32,000 nt of DNA, from contig LYOS01000003.1 in assembly GCA_001766815.1 (NCBI GenBank), positions 1 through 32,000 on the forward strand, in the 5' to 3' direction. The position numbers and the translations under genes are program-made. The DNA is from Candidatus Syntropharchaeum caldarium. Its GTDB lineage: Archaea > Halobacteriota > Syntropharchaeia > Syntropharchaeales > Syntropharchaeaceae. Position 1 is the first letter of the stretch. Each line of letters begins with the position of its first letter. Below are positions 3,767 through 22,619 of this stretch, piece after piece. Below the pieces are notes generated by a model, which searched no databases, was not told the DNA's origin, and saw only the letters and a list, made by a program, of their open reading frames with translations.

Positions 3767-4345
3767 TTACCATAATTTACCCCTGTATTGCCCGATCGCA
3801 GGACATCCAAGGCACTGGCTGTTTTTATAAATTGCGCAGTCCTTACACTCGATATCGATTCCGCAGGGCTGCGTATCAACCAGTTTTATATCCATCTTCA
3901 CAGGTATGATCAACTTTTTTGCCGTGCTGATCACGATATTGAGTTCAACGCTCTCAACCTCTTCAATTGGGCGTATGTGACCGTTTACGATCGCCTCAAG
4001 GGTTGGAATGTCCTCACCTGCAAAGAATAGACAGACATTATTCTTTCCCGAGAGAATGAAACCGTTCAGGAAATATGGACAGTCTCTAAACATGTTGATT
4101 ATACGACTTGTATCTGCGGTTGCGATGTCCACCTTTGCGATATAAAGACCAAGCTTCGATGGATCTATCCCGCACCGTTTCTCTATCGCTCCCATATTTT
4201 TAAGCTTCTTGAGCCGCATCGCAACTGAGGGCTGTGTGAGTTTGATCCTCTCCGCGATCTCCTTCTGTGAGATATCGGGATTCTCGATGAGAAGTGTAAT
4301 AATCTCCCGATCCTTTGAGTCGATCTTGAATTCTTTCAGCGGCAT
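3767..4345 (-). CDS. Lrp/AsnC-family transcriptional regulator with a C-terminal Cys-rich extension
   Basis: 192 aa. N-terminal HTH (DREIITLLIENPDISQKEIAERIKLTQPSVAMRLKKLKNMGAI) and a RAM-like middle part. The tail is C161-x5-C-x2-C-x7-C-x2-C181-P (PCGIDIECKDCAIYKNSQCLGCP). Transcribed divergently from the redox operon. Confidence 0.8.
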   Translation of the reverse strand: MPLKEFKIDSKDREIITLLIENPDISQKEIAERIKLTQPSVAMRLKKLKNMGAIEKRCGIDPSKLGLYIAKVDIATADTSRIINMFRDCPYFLNGFILSGKNNVCLFFAGEDIPTLEAIVNGHIRPIEEVESVELNIVISTAKKLIIPVKMDIKLVDTQPCGIDIECKDCAIYKNSQCLGCPAIGQYRGKLW

Positions 4346-4421: not shown

Positions 4422-4687
4422 TGATAAATATGATAGAGTACCAGAGGCATACTATGATAGATGCATGTCCAGGTGCAGTAGACTTCACAGACCCAAAACC
4501 GATGTTTGTCAAATGTGAGTGCGGGCGCGAGGTTGAGATATGGACGGATGAGATAAGCGCTGAATGTGAATGCGGTAGAACCGTAAAGCGCGATATGAAA
4601 TCCGCCTGTTATCTCTGGTGTGAGCATGCTGCTGAATGTATTGGAGAAGAAAACTTGAGGAGAATCAAGGATGAAAAAAGTGAGTGA
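4421..4687 (+). CDS. Small Cys-rich (zinc-ribbon-like) protein, first gene of the redox operon
   Basis: 88-aa ORF with 8 Cys, including two CEC knuckles (KCECGREVEIW...AECECGRTV) and C-x4-WC-x5-C. Overlaps the next gene by 17 nt. The real start may be ATG 4454 (MIDACPG...), because the TATA-like box overlaps 4421 and AGAGG precedes 4454. Confidence 0.6.
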   Translation: MINMIEYQRHTMIDACPGAVDFTDPKPMFVKCECGREVEIWTDEISAECECGRTVKRDMKSACYLWCEHAAECIGEENLRRIKDEKSE

Positions 4688-6518
4688 ACACGATTCTGTT
4701 AATGAAATGCGCGAGATTTTGAGTGCTGATGGAATTACAAATCTCTTTGATCGTTTTGAAAATCAAAACGGGAGGTGTCCTTTCTGTACAGGAGGGATAA
4801 GCTGCCAATTGTGCAGTAACGGACCCTGCAGGATAAAGAAGGGGGCAGACAGGGGTGCATGTGGGATAGATGCTGACGGGATGGCGATGCGAAACTTCCT
4901 TTTGAAGAATATCATGGGAACGGCAACCTATACCTATCATGCGAAAGAGGTCGCAAAGACGCTCAAAGCCACAATAGCGGGGAAGACCGCCTTTAAGATA
5001 ACTGACGAAGCAAAATTGAAAGAACTTGCATCGATGTTTGGGATTGCAGATACTGATCTTGGTGGAGCTTTCCTTGATCTTATAAAGACCGATTCGGATG
5101 AAGTTCTGAAGTCTGTTGAACTTCTGGCACCAGCAAGCCGAATAAAGGTCTGGAAGGAGCTTGGAATACTCCCAGGAGGTCCACAGGAAGAGATGATGGA
5201 TGCGCTCTCAAGCTGTCTTACGAATGTTGATGGGGATTATGTATCACTTGCAAAAAAGGCGATGAGGCTTGGAATATCGACGATATATGGTTCGCAGATC
5301 CCGCTTGAACTGGGGCAGGACATCCTCTTTGGAACCCCTATGCCACACGAGGTTAATACCGATCTTGGGATCATCGATCCTGATTATGTTAACATCGTGC
5401 CGAACGGACATGAACCTTTCATCGGTGCTGCGATCATCGAGACTGCTCACACTGATCTTGTTCAGCAGAAAGCACGAGATGCAGGGGCAAAAGGACTTCG
5501 TGTCATCGGCTCGATCGAGACAGGGCAGGAGCTTATACAGCGTTTCGAGGTTGATGATGTCTTTGTTGGGTTTACAGGTAACTGGATCTCGATTGAGCCT
5601 GCACTTGCAACGGGTGGAATTGATCTCTTTCTGATGGATATGAACTGCTCACCACCTGCAATGGGGGAGTATCAGGATAAATACAACACAACGCTTCTCT
5701 CGGTCTCAAAACTTGTTTCAGTCCCTGGAATGAAGGGGCAGAAAGTATACATGCCCGAAGAGGTTAAGGCACAGGCAGAAGAACTGATCGATATGGCGAT
5801 TGAAAACTTTAAGGCTCGCAAGGGTAAACCAACACATCCTGTTTCAAAGACCCAGAAAGCGATTGCCGGAATCTCGATTGAAGCGTGTCTTTCGGTGCTT
5901 GGAGGTAGCCTTGATCCACTGCTTGATGTGATAAAGAACGGTACGATTAAGGGTGTTGTTGCGGTTGTGAGCTGTACAAGTCTCAAAAACGGTCCACAGG
6001 ACTCACTCACCGTTGCTGTTGCAAAAGAACTCATAAAACGGGACATTCTTGTTGTTGCTGCAGGATGTGGAAACGCAGCACTCCAGGTCGCAGGACTTGA
6101 GACACCTGAGGCAAAGGAGCTTGCAGGAGACGGCCTTAAAGCAGTCTGTGAGAAGCTTGGAATCCCACCAGTTTTGAGTTTTGGTACATGCACGGATACG
6201 GGCAGGATCGCAATGCTTGTAACAGCGGTTGCAGATGCCCTTGGTGTTGATCCATCAGATCTCCCCGTGGCTGTGACAGCTCCTGAGTACATGGAGCAGA
6301 AGGCAACAATAGATGCGGTATTTGCGGTTGCGTTCGGACTTTACACACATGTATCACCGATCCCACCTGTTACAGGAGCGGATCGTCTTGTTAATCTTCT
6401 TACAGAGGATGTTGAGGGACTTACAGGGGGCAAGATCGCTGTAGGCGACGATCCTGTTGAGATCGTTGATGGGATTGAAGCGCATATAAATAAGAAACGA
6501 GCTAAGCTTGGGATATAA
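4671..6518 (+). CDS. cooS: CooS/Hcp-superfamily enzyme: CO-dehydrogenase catalytic-subunit scaffold with a non-canonical active-site ligand set (CooS-V-like)
   Basis: 615 aa. N-terminal B/D-cluster Cys block CPFCTGGISCQLCSNGPCRI...GACG. CooS-like motifs NGHEP (His247), MDMNCSPP (Cys326), VVSCTS (Cys435), AAGCGNAAL (Cys466), FGTCTDTGR (Cys507) and EQKA (Lys544). Where canonical CooS has GICCTGNE, this protein has GSIETGQE (Ile282/Glu283). Confidence 0.85.
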   Translation: MKKVSEHDSVNEMREILSADGITNLFDRFENQNGRCPFCTGGISCQLCSNGPCRIKKGADRGACGIDADGMAMRNFLLKNIMGTATYTYHAKEVAKTLKATIAGKTAFKITDEAKLKELASMFGIADTDLGGAFLDLIKTDSDEVLKSVELLAPASRIKVWKELGILPGGPQEEMMDALSSCLTNVDGDYVSLAKKAMRLGISTIYGSQIPLELGQDILFGTPMPHEVNTDLGIIDPDYVNIVPNGHEPFIGAAIIETAHTDLVQQKARDAGAKGLRVIGSIETGQELIQRFEVDDVFVGFTGNWISIEPALATGGIDLFLMDMNCSPPAMGEYQDKYNTTLLSVSKLVSVPGMKGQKVYMPEEVKAQAEELIDMAIENFKARKGKPTHPVSKTQKAIAGISIEACLSVLGGSLDPLLDVIKNGTIKGVVAVVSCTSLKNGPQDSLTVAVAKELIKRDILVVAAGCGNAALQVAGLETPEAKELAGDGLKAVCEKLGIPPVLSFGTCTDTGRIAMLVTAVADALGVDPSDLPVAVTAPEYMEQKATIDAVFAVAFGLYTHVSPIPPVTGADRLVNLLTEDVEGLTGGKIAVGDDPVEIVDGIEAHINKKRAKLGI

Positions 6519-6700: not shown

Positions 6701-6715
6701 GTGGGGGTATACTGG

Positions 6716-7042
6716 ATGGATGTGATCAATGTTCTTGATAGGGAATCTTTCAGCCCAGATTCAAAGAGTGTTGTTCGCCTGATCGATGAAGATTACCTCC
6801 AGCTTAACCTGATATGCCTTGAGGCAGGGCAGGAAGTTCCATATCACAATGCAAACTCGAATGTGAACCTGCTGGTCGTGAGGGGAGAGGGTGAACTGGA
6901 GCTTGCAGGTGAAAAAGCACGACTGGAACATGGAAAGATTTTCCGTGTTCCTTTCAAGACAAGGATGAGGATCGTGAACGATTCAAATGATCGTCTTTCT
7001 TTCCTCGTCTTTAAAACCCCGAATCCAAAAGAAATGAGGTGA
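6716..7042 (+). CDS. Cupin-fold protein
   Basis: ORF 6701-7042. I prefer ATG 6716, which is preceded by GGGGGT (6703-6708). Cupin-like core LEAGQEVPYHNANSNVNLLVVRGEGELELAGE...IFRVPFKTRMRIVN, with a reduced His set. Confidence 0.65.
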   Translation: MDVINVLDRESFSPDSKSVVRLIDEDYLQLNLICLEAGQEVPYHNANSNVNLLVVRGEGELELAGEKARLEHGKIFRVPFKTRMRIVNDSNDRLSFLVFKTPNPKEMR

Positions 7043-7054
7043 GGAAGGTAGAAT

Positions 7055-8407
7055 ATGAGAAAAGGTTCTGTAATTTTTGTGCTGCTGCTATTGATCCTGC
7101 CTTTTATGGGATCTGCGGTAGCATCGGAGTGTACAGACTGCCACGAAAGCGTGACACCGAAGATCGTTGAAGACTTCAGTAGCGGTGTGATGGGCGATAA
7201 GATCGACTGTTCGAACTGCCATGGATCGGCACACAATTCCGCCGATAATGTGGAGAATGTGAAATTCCCAACCCATGAGACCTGTGGTGCCTGTCACGAT
7301 GTACAGGATACCCAGTATATGGAGGGTAAACACAGTATCGCATGGGCCGCTCTCTTTGCACCTCCCACAACCGGTGATCAGCCTAAAGAGTTAATGGAGG
7401 GTCAGAAGGGATGTGGAGGTTGCCACAAGATCGGAGCAAAGGATGAAACAGGCTGGGATGATTATGAGTACGGTGTGGTGGGCTGTGACAACTGCCATAC
7501 AAGACATAGCTTCTCAGTAGAGGAGGCGAGAAAGCCTGAAGCATGTCTGCCATGCCATCAGGGATTTGATCATGCACAGTGGGAGATGTACTCAACATCG
7601 AAGCACGGTGTGATCTACCAGACAGAGGGTGATAGATGGGACTGGAGTGTACCGCTCAGTGAGGCAGGCGACGAGTACACCGCTCCAACGTGTCAGCTCT
7701 GCCATATGAAAGATGGAGATCACGCGGTGATGACAAGCTGGGGCTTCCTCGGTGTCAGGGTCGAAGAGCCAGATGAGGAATGGATGGATGATCGTGTATC
7801 TGTACTCAAGGCGTATGGTGTACTCGATGCAGACGGAAATCCGACAGATAGGTTCGATCTCGTGGGTGCTGCAAAGCTTGCGCGGCTTACGATGGATGAA
7901 TGGAATGCCGAAAGAGAGGAGATGATTGCAACCTGCAGTGAGTGTCACTCAGAGACATTTGCAAGAAACTCACTTGAAGAGGGTGATCACCTTCTGAGAG
8001 AATCTGACAGGATCTATGCAGACTCAATCGAGACGGTTGCAGCCCTTTACAGGGATGGAATTCTTCCAGAGCCAGAGTACATCGAGGAACTTCCGTCTTA
8101 CCCATATCCGGATGTCCTGAGGTTCTATGATCAGGCAACACCAATCGAGGAGGACCTCTGGCTCATGTGGATGGAGTACAGGATGCGGACATTCCAGGGC
8201 GCTTTCCATGCAAATCCCGACTACGTTCAGTGGTATGGATGGGGACCACTCAAAGAGACCGCTGTGAGAATTCAGGCAGAGGATGAGCGATTGCGGGCTG
8301 AGGCAGCAACTCCAGAGAGTTCGGTAGAAGAGAGTCCTGGGTTTGGTGCGATCATCGGGATTGCAGCACTACTTGGACTGGTTCTCTACCTTAGAAGAAG
8401 GGGATAA
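7055..8407 (+). CDS. hao: Hydroxylamine-oxidoreductase (HAO)-family octahaem cytochrome c, secreted, with a PGF-CTERM anchor
   Basis: 450 aa with a Sec signal peptide (...FMGSAVA|SE). Eight CxxCH motifs at C26, C52, C77, C120, C144, C164, C213 and C294. The block [42 protein letters not shown], plus APTCQLCHM and [11 protein letters not shown], closely matches Nitrosomonas HAO as I recall it. C-terminus: [25 protein letters not shown]. Confidence 0.85.
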
Positions 8408-8431: not shown

Positions 8432-8453
8432 AAAAAATATGGAGGTTTTAAGA

Positions 8454-8873
8454 ATGGAACCTGTAAACGAGAATAAGATTGGTATTGCAAAGGGAACTGA
8501 GCTTGAAAATGTTGTGAAGGCAAACTTTCAGGGTGAGACGACGGAAGTCGGGCTTTACCTTGCGATGGCACGATGTGCACAGCGAGAAGGTTACCCCGAG
8601 ATCGCAGAGGTCTTGAAGACGCTTGCCTTTGAAGAAGCGGCGCATGGAGCACGATTTGCTGAGCTCAACGCCGAGATCTCAACGAGCACAGAGGAGAATC
8701 TGAAATATATGCTTGAAGGCGAACGAATGGCGAATAAGGAGAAGTTAGATGCTGCGATGAAGGCGAAAGAACTCGGGCTTGATGAACTTCATGATCTCTT
8801 CGATGAATCCTCCAGAGATGAAGCACGGCATGCAAAAGCACTTGAAGGTCTCCTGAAGCGGTATTTTGGTTGA
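8454..8873 (+). CDS. Rubrerythrin-like diiron (ferritin-fold) protein without a rubredoxin domain
   Basis: 139 aa from ATG 8454, with RBS GGAGGT at 8441-8446. The 8343 start in the ORF track overlaps the cytochrome tail and is rejected. Diiron motifs E..GE...Y, EEAAH and DEARH. Confidence 0.8.
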
Positions 8874-8882
8874 TAGATTAAC

Positions 8883-9212
8883 ATGAAGATCGCAGTGGTT
8901 AGATGCGAGATCGTGTCTGAGGTATGCCCTGGTGTTGGCTGCTTCAAGGCATTCAATGATCGGAGAGAGTATTTCAAAGATTATGGAGAGGATGCCGAGA
9001 TCGTGGGGTTCTTTACCTGCGGCGGGTGCTCTGGCAGGCGGGTTATGAGACTTGTTGGAAGCCTTAAGAAGTACGGGGTCGATGTAATCCATCTTGGGTC
9101 CTGTATGACGATGGGTGAGCGAGAGGGATATCTCCCATGCCCGCATCTGGATACGATTAGATCAGGTATCGAGTCAAAAGGTGTCAAGGTAGTATCAGGG
9201 ACGCATCATTAG
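8883..9212 (+). CDS. CGGC-domain protein
   Basis: 109 aa: MKIAVVRCEIVSEVCPGVGCF...FFTCGGCSGRR...HLGSCM. This is the literal CGGC motif in its usual context. Confidence 0.75.
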   Translation: MKIAVVRCEIVSEVCPGVGCFKAFNDRREYFKDYGEDAEIVGFFTCGGCSGRRVMRLVGSLKKYGVDVIHLGSCMTMGEREGYLPCPHLDTIRSGIESKGVKVVSGTHH

Positions 9213-9229
9213 AGAAGAGGTTACTGAAT

Positions 9230-9910
9230 ATGGTAAAACGACTCATCATAAAGATAGACGAGGAGAAATGTGATGGCTGTGGGGAATGTGTCATCGCATG
9301 CGAGGAGGGAGCACTTGAGATCATCGATGGAAAGGCTAAGGTTGTCAAAGAGAGTCTCTGCGATGGTCTTGGTGCGTGTATCGGTGAATGCCCACAGGGA
9401 GCGCTTACAATCGAAGAACGTGAAGCAGAGGCATTTTTGGGGGCAGAAATACCTGTATGCCCCTCCACAAAGTCGATGGTCTGGGAAAAACCTTCTGAAT
9501 CGAAAGAAACAGTACGAACAAGCTCTGAGCTTCGCCAGTGGCCAGTTCTACTCAATCTTGTATCTCCACAGGCTCCCTATTTCAAAAACGCAGATTTACT
9601 CCTTGTTGCAGACTGCGTTCCTGTTGCATACCCGAACTTCCACGCCGACTTTCTTAAAAATCACGCTATCGCGGTTGGTTGCCCAAAGTTCGATGATGTC
9701 AACGTCTATCTGAATAAGGTTACAGAGATCCTGAAGCAATCAGATCTTAAAAGTCTCACCGTGCTCTACATGGAGGTTCCATGCTGTTTTGGACTTGTAC
9801 ATCTTGCACAGGAGGCGGTCAAGCGATCTGGAATGGATGTGCCGTTCAAGGTCATTAAGATTGGAATAAAGGGCGAGGTAATTGAAGAAAAAAGAGGTGA
9901 AATAAAATGA
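9230..9910 (+). CDS. 2x[4Fe-4S] ferredoxin domain fused to an uncharacterised Cys-containing C-terminal domain
   Basis: 226 aa. CDGCGECVIAC and CDGLGACIGECP are ferredoxin motifs. The C-terminal part carries WPVLLNLV...LLLVADCVPVAY...VGCPKFDD...MEVPCCFGL. Confidence 0.75.
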   Translation: MVKRLIIKIDEEKCDGCGECVIACEEGALEIIDGKAKVVKESLCDGLGACIGECPQGALTIEEREAEAFLGAEIPVCPSTKSMVWEKPSESKETVRTSSELRQWPVLLNLVSPQAPYFKNADLLLVADCVPVAYPNFHADFLKNHAIAVGCPKFDDVNVYLNKVTEILKQSDLKSLTVLYMEVPCCFGLVHLAQEAVKRSGMDVPFKVIKIGIKGEVIEEKRGEIK

Positions 9911-10236
9911 GCGATGAGGCCATAAAATCAAGAGCAATCAAACTCTCAGAATTTATCGATTACTCCCCAGGCTCGATCGTGAGTAAAGCAATCGTTGATA
10001 AGAAGGCAGGTACGATAACCCTCTTTGCTTTTGACCGTGGTCAGGGCTTGAGTGAACATTCAGCACCGTTTGACGCTGTTGTGCAGGTTATAGAGGGTGA
10101 GGCAGAGGTCATAATTGGTGGAGAGGTGCATAGGGTCAGAGCGGGAGAGATCATCATCATGCCAGCAGATGTCCCACATGCAGTGAAGGCGCCTGAGCAA
10201 TTCAAGATGCTTCTTGTGATGATCAGATCGCAATGA
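9907..10236 (+). CDS. Cupin-fold protein
   Basis: 109 aa with an ATGA start/stop overlap with the upstream gene. Core: GQGLSEHSAPFDAVVQVIEGEAEVIIGGEVHRVRAGEIIIMPADVPHAV. Confidence 0.7.
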   Translation: MSDEAIKSRAIKLSEFIDYSPGSIVSKAIVDKKAGTITLFAFDRGQGLSEHSAPFDAVVQVIEGEAEVIIGGEVHRVRAGEIIIMPADVPHAVKAPEQFKMLLVMIRSQ

Positions 10237-10245
10237 GGAGAAAAA

Positions 10246-11025
10246 ATGTTCTCAAGTGATCTGAAATTAATCGTAATTTACAGCGATCTCTTCGGAGATA
10301 AGTTCATCAGAAACCTCGTGAATACGACAACCTTCTGTATATCCTGCGCTGAGGCGTGCGATCACTGCAGAGAAGGTAAGTTTAACTTTTCGACAAATAT
10401 CGTGGGCATCTTCAAATTACCGGATCCTGCAACGCTTCCTGAATTTATCGAGGAAGGAATTGAGGAGTACATGCCACAGAATCTCCCAGAAGCAGATCTT
10501 GCGATAGTATCAGGGGTTCACAATGATATTCTGCTTGAGCTTCCATATCTTCTTAAAAGTGCAGGGATAAAAGCGATGATCGTCCCAATCGAGGCATCAG
10601 CACGTCTTGGAATTGCACAGGTTCAGGAAATATGTGAGAAACTTGAAATCGAGTTTGCCGCACCAAAACCGTTCTGTGAGCTTGATCTCGATCCTGATAA
10701 GCCTGTGATCTCACAGTTCATCGAAGAGTTCGGTATCGGGCGACCGAAGCTAAACGTGGAGCTTGATGGAGAGAGGATTGCCCGTATGGATGTTATAAGG
10801 AGTGCCCCCTGTGGCTGCACATGGTACATCGCAAAGCAGCTTCGAAATGTTAAGATTTCAGATAGAAGAGAGTTATGGGATCGGATCAGTGAGGCACACC
10901 ACTCCTACCCCTGTACCGCAAGCATGGAGCACGATTCTGTACTTGGAGATACGATACTTCATAAGGCGGGGTATATTGCGAGGGAGGCGGTTGAGGAGGG
11001 GATTGAGGGGAAAACAATTTTATAG
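10246..11025 (+). CDS. Cys-containing conserved archaeal protein, probably DUF166 family
   Basis: 259 aa. Features I associate with DUF166: N-terminal C..C..C..C, KPFCEL, RSAPCGCTWYIAKQL and HHSYPCTASMEHD...GDTILHKAGYI. Family assignment is from memory only. Confidence 0.55.
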   Translation: MFSSDLKLIVIYSDLFGDKFIRNLVNTTTFCISCAEACDHCREGKFNFSTNIVGIFKLPDPATLPEFIEEGIEEYMPQNLPEADLAIVSGVHNDILLELPYLLKSAGIKAMIVPIEASARLGIAQVQEICEKLEIEFAAPKPFCELDLDPDKPVISQFIEEFGIGRPKLNVELDGERIARMDVIRSAPCGCTWYIAKQLRNVKISDRRELWDRISEAHHSYPCTASMEHDSVLGDTILHKAGYIAREAVEEGIEGKTIL

Positions 11026-19397: not shown

Positions 19398-19667
19398 CTA
19401 CTTACTCCTTCTCGATCTTCCAAGTATGATGTGTGCGAGCGTTCCAAAATCCCCACCAAGATTATCGGTCATACCAATCTCAGGTAGAGGATCAATCTGA
19501 TTTCCTTTTGGTGCCTTACCCTTCATCTGTTCAACAACACCATAGATCTGGGAGATACCTGTTGCTCCAAGCGGATGTCCTTTTCCAAGCAGACCACCTG
19601 ACATGTTGGTTGGGATCTTTCCACCGATCTCGAAATCACCCTCCTTACATGCTTTGTATCCCTCAAA
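19398..19667 (-). pseudogene. 3'-terminal remnant of a thiolase (acetyl-CoA C-acetyltransferase) gene
   Basis: An 89-codon open frame bounded upstream by an in-frame TGA (19668-19670): FEGYKACKEGDFEIGGKIPTNMSGGLLGKGHPLGATGISQIYGVVEQMKGKA...GMTDNLGGDFGTLAHIIL. It contains the thiolase C-terminal signature (NxSGG...GHPxGATG). The N-terminal ~300 aa are absent in any frame, and ccmE starts 36 nt further on the opposite strand. Confidence 0.75.
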
Positions 19668-19702
19668 TCATTCAAAATCTATTTAAACACGCTCACCTTA
19701 AT

Positions 19703-20095
19703 ATGGATTCAATGAATAAACAAACCCGCCTGGCGATTGGAGCGATTATAATTGTTCTCTGCCTTATTGGACTTGGACTCACCCTCAAAGGTTCTGTTGT
19801 ACCATATATCACTGTCAGTGAGCTTAAATCAGGCGACTACGTGGGAGAACACATCCAGATCAACGGAACTGTGGTCACGGGATCGGTTGAGTGGCACCCA
19901 AAAGATGTTCTGCTGACATTCCAGCTAACAGATGGCCATGAGGTGGTGAATGTCGAGTACAGGGGCAGTATCCCGAACAACTTTGAGGAAGGCAAGATGG
20001 TTGTTGTTGGTGGAGTTTATGAGAGGGATCTCTTCGAGGCAGACGAGATACTTGTAAAATGCCCATCAAAGTACACCGAGGAGATCGAAGAATGA
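19703..20095 (+). CDS. ccmE: Cytochrome c maturation haem chaperone CcmE, archaeal CxxxY variant
   Basis: 130 aa: N-terminal TM anchor, OB-fold body, and C-terminal LVKC120PSKY124 in place of the bacterial HxxxY. Alternative start at ATG 19712, which may be leaderless from ATTTAAA at 19681-19687. The 19433 start in the ORF track is rejected. Confidence 0.85.
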   Translation: MDSMNKQTRLAIGAIIIVLCLIGLGLTLKGSVVPYITVSELKSGDYVGEHIQINGTVVTGSVEWHPKDVLLTFQLTDGHEVVNVEYRGSIPNNFEEGKMVVVGGVYERDLFEADEILVKCPSKYTEEIEE

Positions 20096-21987
20096 ACGAT
20101 CTAATCTTTCTTGGGGCGGCACTTCTTGCAGCAATGGCAGCGGTTCTCCTCTATGTGGTCGGGGCTGAACTCAAACGGAATGATCTGATCGAGTGGGGAA
20201 AAGTCTCAACGCACTTAACTTTTATATTTATAACGATCGCATCGCTCCGGCTGTTTTATCTGCTCATCACTCATGACTTCCAGAATATGTATGTTGCAAC
20301 GTACACAAGTCGGGATCTCCCACTTTTCTATGTCGTATCAGCCTTCTGGGCAGGTCAGCAGGGTTCATTCCTTCTATGGGTCTGGCTCATTGCGATCTTT
20401 GCATCGGCTCTGCTTTTTATTAAGAAGGATGATGAACGCTTCATGGCATACACCCTGGCGATGCTTGCTGCGATCATGGTCGGATTTCTCTACATCCTTG
20501 TTACAGTATCAAATCCATTTGAACGACTTGATTTTATACCAGCAGACGGAAATGGGCTGAATCCACTCCTGCAGGATCCAGGCATGGTGCTACACCCGCC
20601 CGTGCTCTTCATCGGGTATGCAGGGTTGGCTGTTCCCTTCGCGTTTGCCGTTGCTGGTGTTATCATGAAACGGGACTGGATTAAATCTGCAAGAAGCTGG
20701 CTCATCCTGGCATGGGTAGCTCTCTCAATGGGTAATATCATTGGTGCATGGTGGGCATACCATGTGCTTGGGTGGGGTGGATACTGGGCATGGGACCCGG
20801 TCGAGAACTCGTCACTTCTACCCTGGCTAACAGCATCAGCACTGCTCCACACCATGATGATCGAGGAGAAAACGGGAAAAATGCGTCTCTCAAACTTTCT
20901 CCTTATCTCAATCACCTTCATTCTTGTCCTGTACGGGACATTCCTGACACGAAGCGGCATCCTCGAATCGGTCCACGCATTTGCAAACTCCGGGCTCGGT
21001 GGCATACTGATGGGATTTTTGCTCATCATACTGACAGCATCTGTGAGGCTCATGATAAGAAGAAGGGATTACCTCAAATCAGATCCAGTTGGGTTTGATC
21101 TATCGCGATCAGGGCTCATACTGATCACTTCCATCCTGCTTGTTATATCTACAGGGACGGTTCTTGCAGGAAGTTTCTATCCATTGATTCTTGAGTTTAC
21201 AGGTGGGGTTCAGCAGATGGTTCAGGCTGAATATTATAACACGATGAATGTCCCGATCGCAGTCATGATTCTCCTGCTTCTTGGAGTTTGTCCCCTGATT
21301 GGCTGGCGGCGGTACACTATGATGGAGTTGAAGAAAAATGTCATGGTTTCAGCGATATCTGCGGTAACAGTTCTTGTAATTGCACTTATTGGAGGCATTA
21401 GAAATCTTATTGCACTTTCTGGCATCATAGCGTGCACATTTGCTCTTACAACCCATATATTTGAGTTTTACACTACAAAAAAATCTGGAAATAATATTCT
21501 TGATGCTATAGGCAAAAACCATCGCCGTTTCGGGGGATACATCGTTCATATCTCGCTAATTGTAATGGTAATCGGCGTCTGTGGCTCTTCGATCTATGAT
21601 GAGCGAGATATCTTCACACTTCAGATAGGTTCAGAGCATACAATCGGCGATTACACGATGAGATATGGTGGTACAGAGATGATCCCTTCGAAATCTGGTG
21701 TCTACTATGTTGCAATCGTTGATCTGTACAGGGATGGCAGGGTTATTGGACGAGCCATGCCAGATGTGTACTACTCATATCGATTTGATCAGACGTATCA
21801 GCATGTCTATATCAAAAGCACACTATTGGAGGATTTCTATCTTGTATATCAGGGGTCTGAGCAAGGATACGCTCTTTTTGAAGTGCGGATTCTTCCCCTT
21901 GTAAGTTTCATCTGGTGGGGTGGCATTCTACTTCTCCTGGGTGGGATTGTTGCCCTTATGCCTGATAAGAGGAGAAATGAAAAATGA
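20092..21987 (+). CDS. ccmF: Cytochrome c maturation haem lyase / haem-handling protein CcmF
   Basis: 631 aa from ATG 20092, with an ATGA overlap with the ccmE stop. Polytopic, with the WWD motif WGGYWAWDPVENSSLLPWL. Confidence 0.9.
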   Translation: MNDLIFLGAALLAAMAAVLLYVVGAELKRNDLIEWGKVSTHLTFIFITIASLRLFYLLITHDFQNMYVATYTSRDLPLFYVVSAFWAGQQGSFLLWVWLIAIFASALLFIKKDDERFMAYTLAMLAAIMVGFLYILVTVSNPFERLDFIPADGNGLNPLLQDPGMVLHPPVLFIGYAGLAVPFAFAVAGVIMKRDWIKSARSWLILAWVALSMGNIIGAWWAYHVLGWGGYWAWDPVENSSLLPWLTASALLHTMMIEEKTGKMRLSNFLLISITFILVLYGTFLTRSGILESVHAFANSGLGGILMGFLLIILTASVRLMIRRRDYLKSDPVGFDLSRSGLILITSILLVISTGTVLAGSFYPLILEFTGGVQQMVQAEYYNTMNVPIAVMILLLLGVCPLIGWRRYTMMELKKNVMVSAISAVTVLVIALIGGIRNLIALSGIIACTFALTTHIFEFYTTKKSGNNILDAIGKNHRRFGGYIVHISLIVMVIGVCGSSIYDERDIFTLQIGSEHTIGDYTMRYGGTEMIPSKSGVYYVAIVDLYRDGRVIGRAMPDVYYSYRFDQTYQHVYIKSTLLEDFYLVYQGSEQGYALFEVRILPLVSFIWWGGILLLLGGIVALMPDKRRNEK

Positions 21988-22619
21988 AGGCTGAACGAAT
22001 ATTTTTCATACTGATAGTTACTTCTCTACTCTTCATGCCGTATGCTTCTGCCGGGTCAGATGATGCCGAGATCGAGATTGTTATGAGCCACATCTTTATT
22101 ACCCCTGCCACAGATCATCTTGAGGTCACTGAAGTTCTTGCTTTCAAAAACGTGGGCCCAGTTACTTTTAATGGAACGATCGAGCCAACACCCTTTGATG
22201 GGTGGCAAAATCTTGATGCAGAGCCTTTCACAGGAGAAATACAGGCAAACGAGAGTGTGCAGATGATGCTCTCATACAATATCGAGATCTCTGGCGAGAC
22301 TGTAAAACTTACAAAGATCACACCATATACGATCAAAACAGTGAGCCTCTTTCTACCGGTAGAAAGGGGTCTTATAGTGGATGATAAAGGAAGCTTTGAG
22401 TCTGTAACCGGCAGCACGATCCGGGGGAACGAGTATTACGTACTCGAATCGTATGATGTACCCCCTGAATCCACCATCTGGGCAAGCTTCGGTATACCAC
22501 AACACGAGAAGGTGACTGATGAAACTGATTACGATATTGGAGTGATCGTTCTAATTATCGTACTCATCACGATAGCTCTTTTTCCGAATTTAAGGGACTA
22601 CCTGAGGAAGAGAGATTAG
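21984..22619 (+). CDS. Unknown extracytoplasmic protein: signal peptide, beta-rich Cys-free body, C-terminal TM anchor. Translationally coupled to ccmF
   Basis: 211 aa with an ATGA overlap with the ccmF stop. Signal peptide MKAERIFFILIVTSLLFMPYASA. No Cys at all. C-terminal anchor IGVIVLIIVLITIALF followed by RDYLRKRD. Confidence 0.65.
   Translation: MKAERIFFILIVTSLLFMPYASAGSDDAEIEIVMSHIFITPATDHLEVTEVLAFKNVGPVTFNGTIEPTPFDGWQNLDAEPFTGEIQANESVQMMLSYNIEISGETVKLTKITPYTIKTVSLFLPVERGLIVDDKGSFESVTGSTIRGNEYYVLESYDVPPESTIWASFGIPQHEKVTDETDYDIGVIVLIIVLITIALFPNLRDYLRKRD

Follow-up and report, generated by a model that had tools for sequence, protein, structure and literature searches.

In oxidising members of the HAO (hydroxylamine oxidoreductase) family a tyrosine is cross-linked to haem, as in HDH, where a bond joins Tyr462 to the haem 4 of a different subunit (PMC6469936). 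HAOr has no cross-link and no P460 band, oxidises neither hydroxylamine (NH2OH) nor hydrazine (N2H4), and converts nitrite to NO (PMC8042395); a Trp at the Tyr position has been reported for epsilon-Hao (PMC8940962), and Tyr-less HAOs are widely taken to be reductases (PMC8042395, PMC8940962). Here we describe an HAO-family octahaem cytochrome c gene (7055..8407, + strand) of Candidatus Syntropharchaeum caldarium, located in positions 1 to 32,000 of contig LYOS01000003.1 (assembly GCA_001766815.1), the stretch of DNA that we analysed as a whole and call the window. Its product carries signals for export and for PGF-CTERM anchoring, and the residues around the cross-link site make it very probable that it belongs to the cross-link-less, reductive type.

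Several elements of this finding are on record. HAO homologues in archaeal proteomes were catalogued in 2015 (11 matches; PMC4429474), and PGF-CTERM multihaem cytochromes have been noted in anaerobic methanotrophic archaea (ANME; PMC9012536, PMC5244752). Two proteins of the sister species Ca. Syntrophoarchaeum butanivorans are tabulated with PF13447, TIGR04126 and K10535 'hao' in the supplement of PMC11543930, which finds the family in 3 of 7 Syntropharchaeia genomes encoding alkyl-coenzyme M reductase (ACR) and in 1 of 54 encoding methyl-coenzyme M reductase (MCR). The main text of that paper never mentions hydroxylamine, nitrite or PGF, we found no paper with both Syntrophoarchaeum and HAO in its main text, and the orthologues are named 'PGF-CTERM sorting domain-containing protein' or 'multiheme c-type cytochrome' at NCBI. 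Since archaeal HAO homologues, PGF-CTERM cytochromes and the joint 'hao + PGF_CTERM' annotation already exist, the novelty is modest; what appears to be new is the assignment of the clade, residue by residue in alignments, to the Trp-type cross-link-less class, a conserved archaeal operon that pairs the HAO-type gene with a CooS-V-type or NirB-like mini-reductase, and the modularity of the anchors.

Family placement, haem motifs and targeting signals

The features of the gene and its product are as follows (aa, amino-acid positions of the precursor).

7055..8407, + strand: HAO-family octahaem cytochrome c precursor gene (open reading frame (ORF) with ATG start, 450 aa; PF13447; PDB matches 6H5L, 1FGJ, 4N4J and 6HIF; AlphaFold2 model and Foldseek)
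7055..7123, + strand: predicted Sec-type signal peptide, aa 1-23, predicted cleavage after AVA (sequence inspection and a hydropathy peak over aa 1-25)
7130..7948, + strand: span of the eight CxxCH haem-binding motifs, aa 26-30, 52-56, 77-81, 120-124, 144-148, 164-168, 213-217 and 294-298 (motif reading)
7412..7426, + strand: fourth haem motif, C120-G-G-C-H124, at the position of catalytic haem 4 of the HAO family (motif order, alignment to HAO structures)
7568..7573, + strand: Asp172-His173, counterpart of the conserved distal Asp and His in the active site of HAOs (aligned with NeHAO D267-H268 in CHSGVDHNNWE)
8207..8248, + strand: loop His385...Pro398, site of the cross-linking Tyr in oxidising HAOs, with Trp393 (His+8) or Gln392 here (alignments)
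8324..8404, + strand: end of an acidic/Ser linker and PGF-CTERM signal, comprising P428-G-F, a hydrophobic helix and RRRG (TIGR04126, PF18204)

Profile, sequence and fold searches agree that the protein is an HAO-family member with eight c-haem sites and the HAO fold. The match to PF13447 scored 139.7 bits (cut-off 21.9; E = 1.4e-40). Searches of PDB sequences with phmmer returned HAO-family enzymes only, led by HAOr 6H5L (2.7e-36) and N. europaea HAO (about 1e-35), together with KsHOX, Brocadia HOX and HDH and, more weakly, Ignicoccus IhOCC. A profile built from 118 homologues, on which all conservation counts below are based, gave the same leading match in the PDB (189.6 bits for HAOr 6H5L, 163.6 for KsHOX, 147.8 for NeHAO, 135.9 for HDH and 117.5 for IhOCC), with matches from E = 8e-55 to 7e-33 that were HAO family throughout. 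In the AlphaFold2 model of the monomer without haems (predicted local distance difference test score (pLDDT) 85.3, predicted template-modelling score (pTM) 0.81) the HAO fold is seen, including three long C-terminal interface helices (300-333, 363-384 and 388-418), and all eleven significant Foldseek matches were to HAO, HOX, HDH, HAOr or IhOCC, the best being 6H5L (E = 3.4e-15, TMq 0.65). Structures of NrfA and ONR scored E > 1 with Foldseek, and MccA and Otr were neither among the Foldseek matches listed nor found in the PDB sequence searches. NrfA and ONR are ruled out by the lack of a CxxCK motif in the window protein, and MccA by the lack of a spare Cys for a Cu site or of a CX15CH motif.

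The precursor contains exactly eight CxxCH motifs (starting at C26, C52, C77, C120, C144, C164, C213 and C294), which account for all 16 of its Cys residues. This number was reached in none of 20000 shuffles of the protein, the shuffle maximum being 2, and only 2 further CxxCH motifs occur elsewhere in the 32-kb window in six frames. Motifs 3-8 have invariant Cys and His residues among the homologues; in motifs 1-2 these residues are kept in at least 90%. Around the fourth motif G119, C120, C123 and H124 are invariant, and haem 4 is expected from knowledge of the family (PMC8042395) to be five-coordinate. The distal pair, described in HDH as the 'conserved Asp255/His256 pair' (PMC6469936), is equally well kept, with Asp172 in 117 of 118 and His173 in 118 of 118 homologues; this conservation argues for a catalytic rather than a purely electron-carrying role.

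Judged by inspection and hydropathy profile only, the N-terminus has the layout of a Sec signal peptide (MRK, a 15-residue hydrophobic core and SAVA|SE with an AxA site), in which inspection found neither a twin-arginine motif nor a lipobox Cys. At the other end, the last 23 residues consist of PGF, a 16-residue hydrophobic stretch and RRRG, and score above the cut-offs of both curated models (TIGR04126, 27.6 vs. 24.5 bits over aa 424-449; PF18204, 21.9 vs. 18.8 bits over aa 428-449), with the small margins that are usual for models of 23-28 residues.

A sequence-only reading of this DNA, made by a model without database searches, had proposed an HAO-family cytochrome with eight HAO-like CxxCH motifs, a Sec signal peptide and a PGF-CTERM tail, and all four proposals stand: family membership through the profile, sequence and fold searches, the haem motifs through their count, order and spacing and PF13447, and the two signals through inspection with hydropathy and the two tail models, respectively. 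The alternative that it had named, membership of MccA, Otr or another multihaem family, is excluded by the profile and fold searches. Its residue numbers (C120, Y390, Y394, P428-G-F) are all right on inspection, and the stretches of Nitrosomonas HAO that it had named are real, since a run of 42 letters, APTCxxCHM, CxxCHSExFAR and GWGP align with 1FGJ/4FAS, as is the NeHAO segment GGWTYTEGWGP according to the PDB alignment.

A purine-rich stretch resembling a ribosome-binding site (GAGGTGAGGAAGG) lies immediately 5' of the ATG at 7055. The nearest relatives of the product are a 99%-identical protein from a 'Candidatus Syntropharchaeales archaeon' metagenome-assembled genome (MAG) and OFV66005.1 of S. 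butanivorans (87%), and at about 50% identity the homologue clade is also common in lineages such as Acidobacteriota, Aminicenantes, Gemmatimonadota and Bacteroidota. Archaeal markers in the window include genes for Ftr, an aRF1-type protein, TFIIB, RpoB and RpoA'. The G+C content of the gene is 51%, that of the window 46%. This difference, taken with the roughly 50% identity to a bacterial clade of great breadth, would fit a horizontal transfer of the gene in the distant past.

The cross-link loop

The loops of the three cross-linked enzymes align without gaps (KsHOX AHMSMYNQTYGNG, HDH AHGSWNDATYSDG and NeHAO AHVNPGGWTYTEG; a C-terminal fragment of KsHOX was aligned against the PDB) and share the pattern A-H-x6-T-Y-x-x-G, in which the cross-link Tyr, residue 462 of the HDH chain and 467 of NeHAO, stands at His+8. 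In the window protein, the residue eight positions after His385 is Trp393, the T-Y dipeptide is absent from the loop, and the Gly stands at +10 vs. +11 in the oxidising enzymes, so that the loop is one residue shorter. The column of the cross-link Tyr corresponds to Trp393 or to Gln392, according to the placement of this one-residue deletion. Tyr394 or Tyr390 can be brought into the column only with two indels, which breaks the His(0)-Tyr(+8) spacing of NeHAO, KsHOX and HDH, and both were set aside as cross-link residues on that ground. The loop of HAOr (HAQQDVSWWWGQAP, H-AQQDVS-W-W-W-G) is identical in length to that of the window protein.

The loop has 14 residues in 118 of 118 homologues. 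H385, W393, Y394 and G395 are invariant in all of them, Tyr390 is 93% conserved, and position 392 varies among L, T, F, H and Q. The absence of a Tyr from the cross-link column, the loop length shared with HAOr and the Trp at the Tyr position argue strongly for a cross-link-less HAO of the reductive type. The sequence-only reading had described the loop correctly as one residue shorter, with Tyr390 and Tyr394 in it; its idea that either Tyr might serve as the cross-link residue did not survive alignment, and its question of a P460-type or a reductive enzyme resolves, as far as sequence can tell, towards the reductive one.

Tail variants and the surrounding operon

All 13 of the closest archaeal homologues, which cover Syntropharchaeales, GoM-Arc1/Methanoperedenaceae and Methanosarcinales, end in a linker followed by a PGF (in one case PGL) tail with hydrophobic and basic parts, some of these tails scoring below the model cut-off; bacterial homologues of about 410 aa stop straight after the last helix, without a tail. 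PGF tails also occur in a second, Geoglobus-type group, and a few other homologues end in a plain C-terminal helix. Tails are confined to archaeal or monoderm-like members of the clade; the pattern fits a tether for an enzyme that is otherwise periplasmic, in cells without an outer membrane. A rough neighbour-joining tree does not join the two PGF groups as sisters, which indicates that anchors were gained or swapped repeatedly.

Three archaeal-type homologues (P0014, P0016 and P0017; e.g. locus L006, 8001-9443) carry another tail, composed of GICGP, a hydrophobic helix and RRR(R). The GICGP tails gave no match to the NCBIfam sorting-domain models, nor did P0014 and P0016 to the CGP-CTERM model; from its sequence, this tail has the look of another type of C-terminal sorting signal.

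Pfam-type scans of the window ORFs, made without an ArtA query, found no artA in the 32-kb window. In S. butanivorans artA is SBU_000152 (PF09721, TIGR04125, K24447), and the gene occurs in 3 of 7 ACR-encoding vs. 0 of 54 MCR-encoding Syntropharchaeia genomes (PMC11543930 supplement), a distribution that agrees with an older report of ANME-1 lacking ArtA (PMC5244752). No other PGF-CTERM protein was found in the window. A secreted PKD-domain protein (149-1015, + strand) has a hydrophobic stretch at its C-terminus and a tail of KRHRR, without a PGF motif.

The HAO-like gene lies in a putative operon with the following neighbours.

3767..4345, - strand (divergent): AsnC/Lrp-type regulator with a Cys-rich C-terminal tail, candidate operon regulator (Pfam HTH_24 / HTH_AsnC-type)
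4671..6518, + strand: CooS-V-type hybrid-cluster 'CO dehydrogenase' with Glu for C-cluster Cys295 (TIGR01702, 796 bits; best PDB match 7B7Q)
6701..7042, + strand: small cupin (PF07883)
8439..8873, + strand: rubrerythrin-like di-iron protein without a rubredoxin domain (PF02915; likely ATG at 8439, mechanical ORF start at 8343)
8883-9212, + strand: CGGC-domain protein (Pfam)
9230-9910, + strand: 2x[4Fe-4S] ferredoxin-domain protein (Pfam)
9907-10236, + strand: second cupin (Pfam)
10246-11025, + strand: DUF166 protein (Pfam)
19433..21987, + strand: ccmE (CxxxY variant) and ccmF, outside the operon (PF03100, PF16327, PF01578)

The small cupin gene ends 12 bp 5' of the HAO-like gene and the CooS-V-type gene lies 183 bp upstream of the cupin, and gaps on the 3' side through DUF166 range from -4 to about 31 bp, those of the genes in 8883..11025 from -4 to 17 bp. 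No transmembrane segment and no CxxCH motif was found in the products of 8883..11025. The 226-aa product of 9230-9910 combines two N-terminal [4Fe-4S] motifs with an unassigned Cys-containing C-terminal domain; S. butanivorans lacks a full-length version and has only a 70-aa ORF and a gap at the corresponding position (L001, 12195-13232); this may reflect gene decay or an assembly problem.

The best PDB match of the CooS-type protein by far is CooS-V of C. hydrogenoformans (7B7Q, 782 bits vs. 413 for the next match, a true CO dehydrogenase); its GSIETGQE aligns with GSIE295SGQE, and the RCxxC38/41 motif with the extra Cys41 is kept. On the PDB ranking and the Glu at Cys295 we assigned the gene to the CooS-V type and rejected both a true CO dehydrogenase and a classical Hcp; by its sequence, the product is probably not a CO dehydrogenase. 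CooS-V contains a hybrid Fe/S/O cluster, converts neither CO nor CO2, and slowly reduces hydroxylamine (PMC9311411).

The C-terminal end of the window CcmE (...LVKCPSKY) is that of the CxxxY (Cys) variant of the haem chaperone, which occurs in archaea and some bacteria. The ORF that follows ccmF (21984-22619) encodes a signal peptide and a C-terminal helix and has no Pfam match.

The same operon is found in S. butanivorans, where the orthologue is 87% identical, the CGGC, cupin and DUF166 genes are syntenic, and a 144-aa rubrerythrin-like orthologue lies directly 3' of the HAO-like gene. DUF166 and cupin genes recur at loci L002-L004, L011 and L088, and a rubrerythrin gene flanks the HAO-like gene at L002-L004 and L088. 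An AsnC-type regulator adjoins the HAO-like gene in S. butanivorans (77% identity; L001, 7165-7743, - strand) and in GoM-Arc1 E37 (74%; L009, 6072-6650, - strand), and is near it at L002 and L088. The regulator, which is kept at 74-77% identity beside the HAO-like gene in three genomes, has a tail with six Cys (CGIDIECKDCAIYKNSQCLGCP) that could be a metal or Fe-S module for redox or NO sensing.

GoM-Arc1 E37 (Ca. Methanoperedenaceae archaeon GB37), whose genome is complete, has the genes in the order AsnC regulator, 223-aa sirohaem protein, cupin (82% identical and in the same position as in the window) and HAO-like gene. A stand-alone sirohaem protein (NIR_SIR) of 223-224 aa takes the place of CooS-V here and in two Methanosarcinales-type lineages, the P0007 lineage and a Methanosarcinales MAG (L009, 6913-7584; L002, 11905-12576; L088, 4481-5155, - strand). 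It scores 173.6 bits against the NirB sirohaem domain and at most 55 bits against sulfite reductases. In these two lineages the sirohaem protein (62% identity), rubrerythrin, cupin and DUF166 surround the HAO-like gene, and in the Methanosarcinales MAG (L088) the gene lies within a larger island of rubrerythrins, flavodoxins and desulfoferrodoxin. Elsewhere, a PGF-type homologue of another archaeon directly follows amtB-glnK (L090, 5325-8344), and a Methylomirabilis homologue has hemerythrin and NorC/NorB-like genes nearby (L007, 4498-11066).

With tblastn of the window operon proteins, synteny was found in the archaeal subclade only. This search and a Pfam census of 144 flanking ORFs at 79 mostly bacterial loci rule out a conserved partner across the whole clade, and since no bacterial partner recurs, the synteny is a feature of the archaeal alkane-oxidiser subclade and not of the clade as a whole.

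Function, rival explanations and known systems

We interpret the protein, with a probability of roughly 0.55, as an exported, lipid-anchored Tyr-less HAO that reduces small nitrogen oxides and forms the outside arm of an AsnC-regulated operon for defence and scavenging. Under this interpretation, the precursor would be exported unfolded by Sec, loaded with haem by a System I Ccm machinery that is partly (ccmE, ccmF) encoded 11 kb away, and assembled into a non-covalent trimer as in HAOr; archaeosortase A would cut at the PGF and leave the protein lipid-anchored on the outer face of the cytoplasmic membrane. Electrons would come from a reduced extracytoplasmic cytochrome or the membrane carrier pool of the alkane-oxidising archaeon, a donor that is a guess since the operon encodes no other cytochrome and no quinol dehydrogenase, and the five-coordinate haem 4 would convert nitrite, NO and hydroxylamine to NO, NH2OH or NH4+. 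A cytoplasmic arm, consisting of the CooS-V-type enzyme (a NirB-like sirohaem reductase in the relatives), the rubrerythrin-like protein, the cupins, the ferredoxin-domain protein and DUF166, would deal with what enters the cell and protect nitrite- or NO-sensitive enzymes such as alkyl-coenzyme M reductase. ANME relatives have a dedicated nitrite reductase that is thought to protect Mcr, and Mcr-type enzymes are nitrite-sensitive (PMC9295563), which makes a module for defence or nitrogen scavenging plausible. The gene neighbourhood, too, favours a reductive enzyme. More specifically, and as a tentative proposal, the operon might be an undescribed outside/inside relay for the reduction of nitrogen oxides, with a lipid-anchored HAO-type enzyme outside and CooS-V or a NirB-like mini sirohaem reductase inside; such a relay would shield the F430 enzymes of alkane-oxidising archaea and give CooS-V its first physiological context.

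A number of observations weigh against this interpretation. The evidence for artA comes from the sister species S. butanivorans and not from the source genome itself. The operon contains no other ORF with CxxCH and no quinol or methanophenazine dehydrogenase of the NrfH/CycB type, and the census of the 79 loci revealed no recurrent nitrogen-cycle or quinol-dehydrogenase partner. CooS-V turns over hydroxylamine very slowly, no reduction of NO by it was seen, and no physiological role has been established for it (PMC9311411). The rubrerythrin neighbours, and the desulfoferrodoxin and flavodoxin neighbours at L088, fit oxidative stress no less than nitrosative stress. The interpretation gives no reason for the invariance of Tyr394, which adjoins the key position of the loop, and one profile (hmmsearch) alignment set KsHOX Tyr415 on Tyr394, with the invariant His shifted by one residue. 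Finally, we found no data on activity, spectrum or localisation in the literature for the clade at about 50% identity.

Among the rival explanations, the one that comes nearest, although we consider it improbable, is that the protein is mainly an electron-transfer cytochrome without a physiological small-molecule substrate and that a lipid-anchored 24-haem trimer relays electrons, either to an extracellular cytochrome or nanowire network for direct interspecies electron transfer to a sulfate-reducing partner or as a CymA-like hub. In its favour, the host belongs to a lineage of syntrophic alkane oxidisers with many multihaem cytochromes, a CymA-like role has been proposed for small PGF-CTERM multihaem cytochromes of ANME (PMC9012536), the metal reducers Geoglobus, Geobacter and Geomonas have close homologues, and the skew of the family towards ACR-encoding genomes, the lack of a dedicated redox partner in the operon and the prevalence of other c-type cytochromes as the commonest neighbours at bacterial loci (8 of 144 flanking ORFs) would all suit a carrier. 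The near-invariance of the Asp-His pair and of the haem-4 motif, however, is expected of a catalytic site and not of a wire, the family is common in lineages, such as the Acidobacteriota and the others named above, that are not known for extracellular electron transfer, and the archaeal operon, under an AsnC-type regulator, combines the gene with cytoplasmic proteins for reduction and stress rather than with parts of a conduit. A somewhat less probable explanation is an extracytoplasmic reductase for another oxidant (H2O2 or O2-derived species, or sulfite) in an oxidative or sulfite stress island: a rubrerythrin-like gene always adjoins in the archaeal subclade, and the Methanosarcinales MAG has additional rubrerythrins in its island, along with flavodoxins and desulfoferrodoxin. 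NrfA and similar multihaem nitrite reductases also detoxify H2O2. Sulfite inactivates Mcr-type enzymes (PMC9295563). Against such a role, the sirohaem neighbour is far closer to NirB than to sulfite reductases, the protein has none of the features of MccA considered above, and the characterised Tyr-less enzymes of the HAO family are all reductases of nitrogen oxides.

By far the least probable rival is an oxidising, P460-type HAO in which Tyr394 (or Tyr390) is cross-linked from a shifted loop register and hydroxylamine is oxidised. It would account for the invariance of Tyr394 and the 93% conservation of Tyr390, both of which the AlphaFold2 model places where the last long helix begins, in the region of the cross-link Tyr, and the KsHOX profile alignment mentioned above superposes the KsHOX Y-G on Y394-G395. 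Such a register demands the two indels and the broken His-Tyr spacing described for the loop, the equally long loop of HAOr carries no cross-link, the T-Y of the oxidisers is missing, the neighbours are reductases, and the host is a strict anaerobe whose window offers no context of ammonia monooxygenase or hydrazine synthase. That Tyr394 forms a non-canonical haem cross-link, or otherwise tunes haem 4 for oxidation, is likewise very doubtful; if it did, a widespread clade and an anaerobic alkane-oxidising archaeon would be capable of hydroxylamine oxidation.

If the protein is reductive, Syntrophoarchaeum, the GoM-Arc1/Ethanoperedens group and related Methanosarcinales would carry a surface-tethered reductase for nitrite, NO or hydroxylamine that is wired to cytoplasmic reductases under one regulator, which would add a trait of nitrogen-oxide defence or scavenging to short-chain-alkane oxidisers known only for carbon and electron transfer. 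The operon would also offer a natural setting for probing the function of CooS-V-type 'CO dehydrogenases', and the position of CooS-V beside an HAO-type gene may itself hint at the role of CooS-V. One enzyme family would be seen fitted with different anchors (PGF-CTERM, GICGP-type tail, plain helix) in cells without an outer membrane. The picture of archaeal ammonia or hydroxylamine oxidation would stay unchanged.

Comparison of the window protein to characterised enzymes places it closest to HAOr of Kuenenia stuttgartiensis (Kustc0458, 6H5L), which is its best match in sequence, profile and fold and shares with it the eight haems, the Asp-His pair, a Trp rather than a Tyr at His+8 and the same length of the His...G loop. 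The identity between the two proteins is only about 27%, and the residue at +9 is Trp in HAOr and Tyr in the window protein. HAOr has a dihaem partner (Kustc0457), with which it forms a 60-haem complex (PMC8042395), whereas the window gene has no flanking cytochrome gene, and HAOr is soluble in the anammoxosome, whereas the window protein carries a PGF-CTERM anchor signal.

The epsilon-Hao enzymes of Campylobacterota, which we compared by their published signature and not by sequence, are likewise Tyr-less with Trp at the key position (PMC8940962), and reduce nitrite and hydroxylamine in vitro (PMC8042395). In the reverse hydroxylamine-ubiquinone redox module (reverse-HURM) of Nautilia, HaoA outside is combined with a hybrid-cluster protein inside, of which the HAO-type protein and CooS-V in the window operon would be the analogue. 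The signature Met eight residues before the Trp, as relayed in PMC8940962, corresponds to position 385 of the window protein, where an invariant His is found; a Met occurs at position 386 only, in 37 of 118 homologues. Epsilon-Hao has a partner of the NapC/NrfH type (CycB/NrfH), whereas the window operon has none, and CooS-V, with its slow turnover of NH2OH, is not an Hcp of the classical kind.

With the oxidising HAOs (NeHAO 1FGJ/4FAS, KsHOX 4N4J and HDH 6HIF), the window protein has in common the fold, the order of haem motifs, the Asp-His pair and long identical stretches around haems 5-7, whereas these enzymes have T-Y with the Tyr at His+8, a loop longer by one residue, and chains longer by 50-130 residues, mostly at the N-terminus. 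Another archaeal protein, IhOCC of Ignicoccus hospitalis (Igni_0955, 4QO5), is a Tyr-less, HAO-like octahaem nitrite reductase with a TMq of 0.61 to the window model; it is much more distant in sequence (117.5 bits, 17% identity), comes from another archaeal lineage with another cell architecture, and has no reported PGF-CTERM. The targeting logic, a signal peptide combined with an archaeosortase A signal, is that of the small PGF-CTERM or C-terminally anchored multihaem cytochromes of ANME, which are likewise found in Halobacteriota that oxidise methane or alkanes (Chadwick et al. 2022; Timmers et al. 2017). Those cytochromes have been discussed as electron carriers without an enzyme family, whereas the window protein belongs to a recognisable enzyme family and has a conserved active-site pair.

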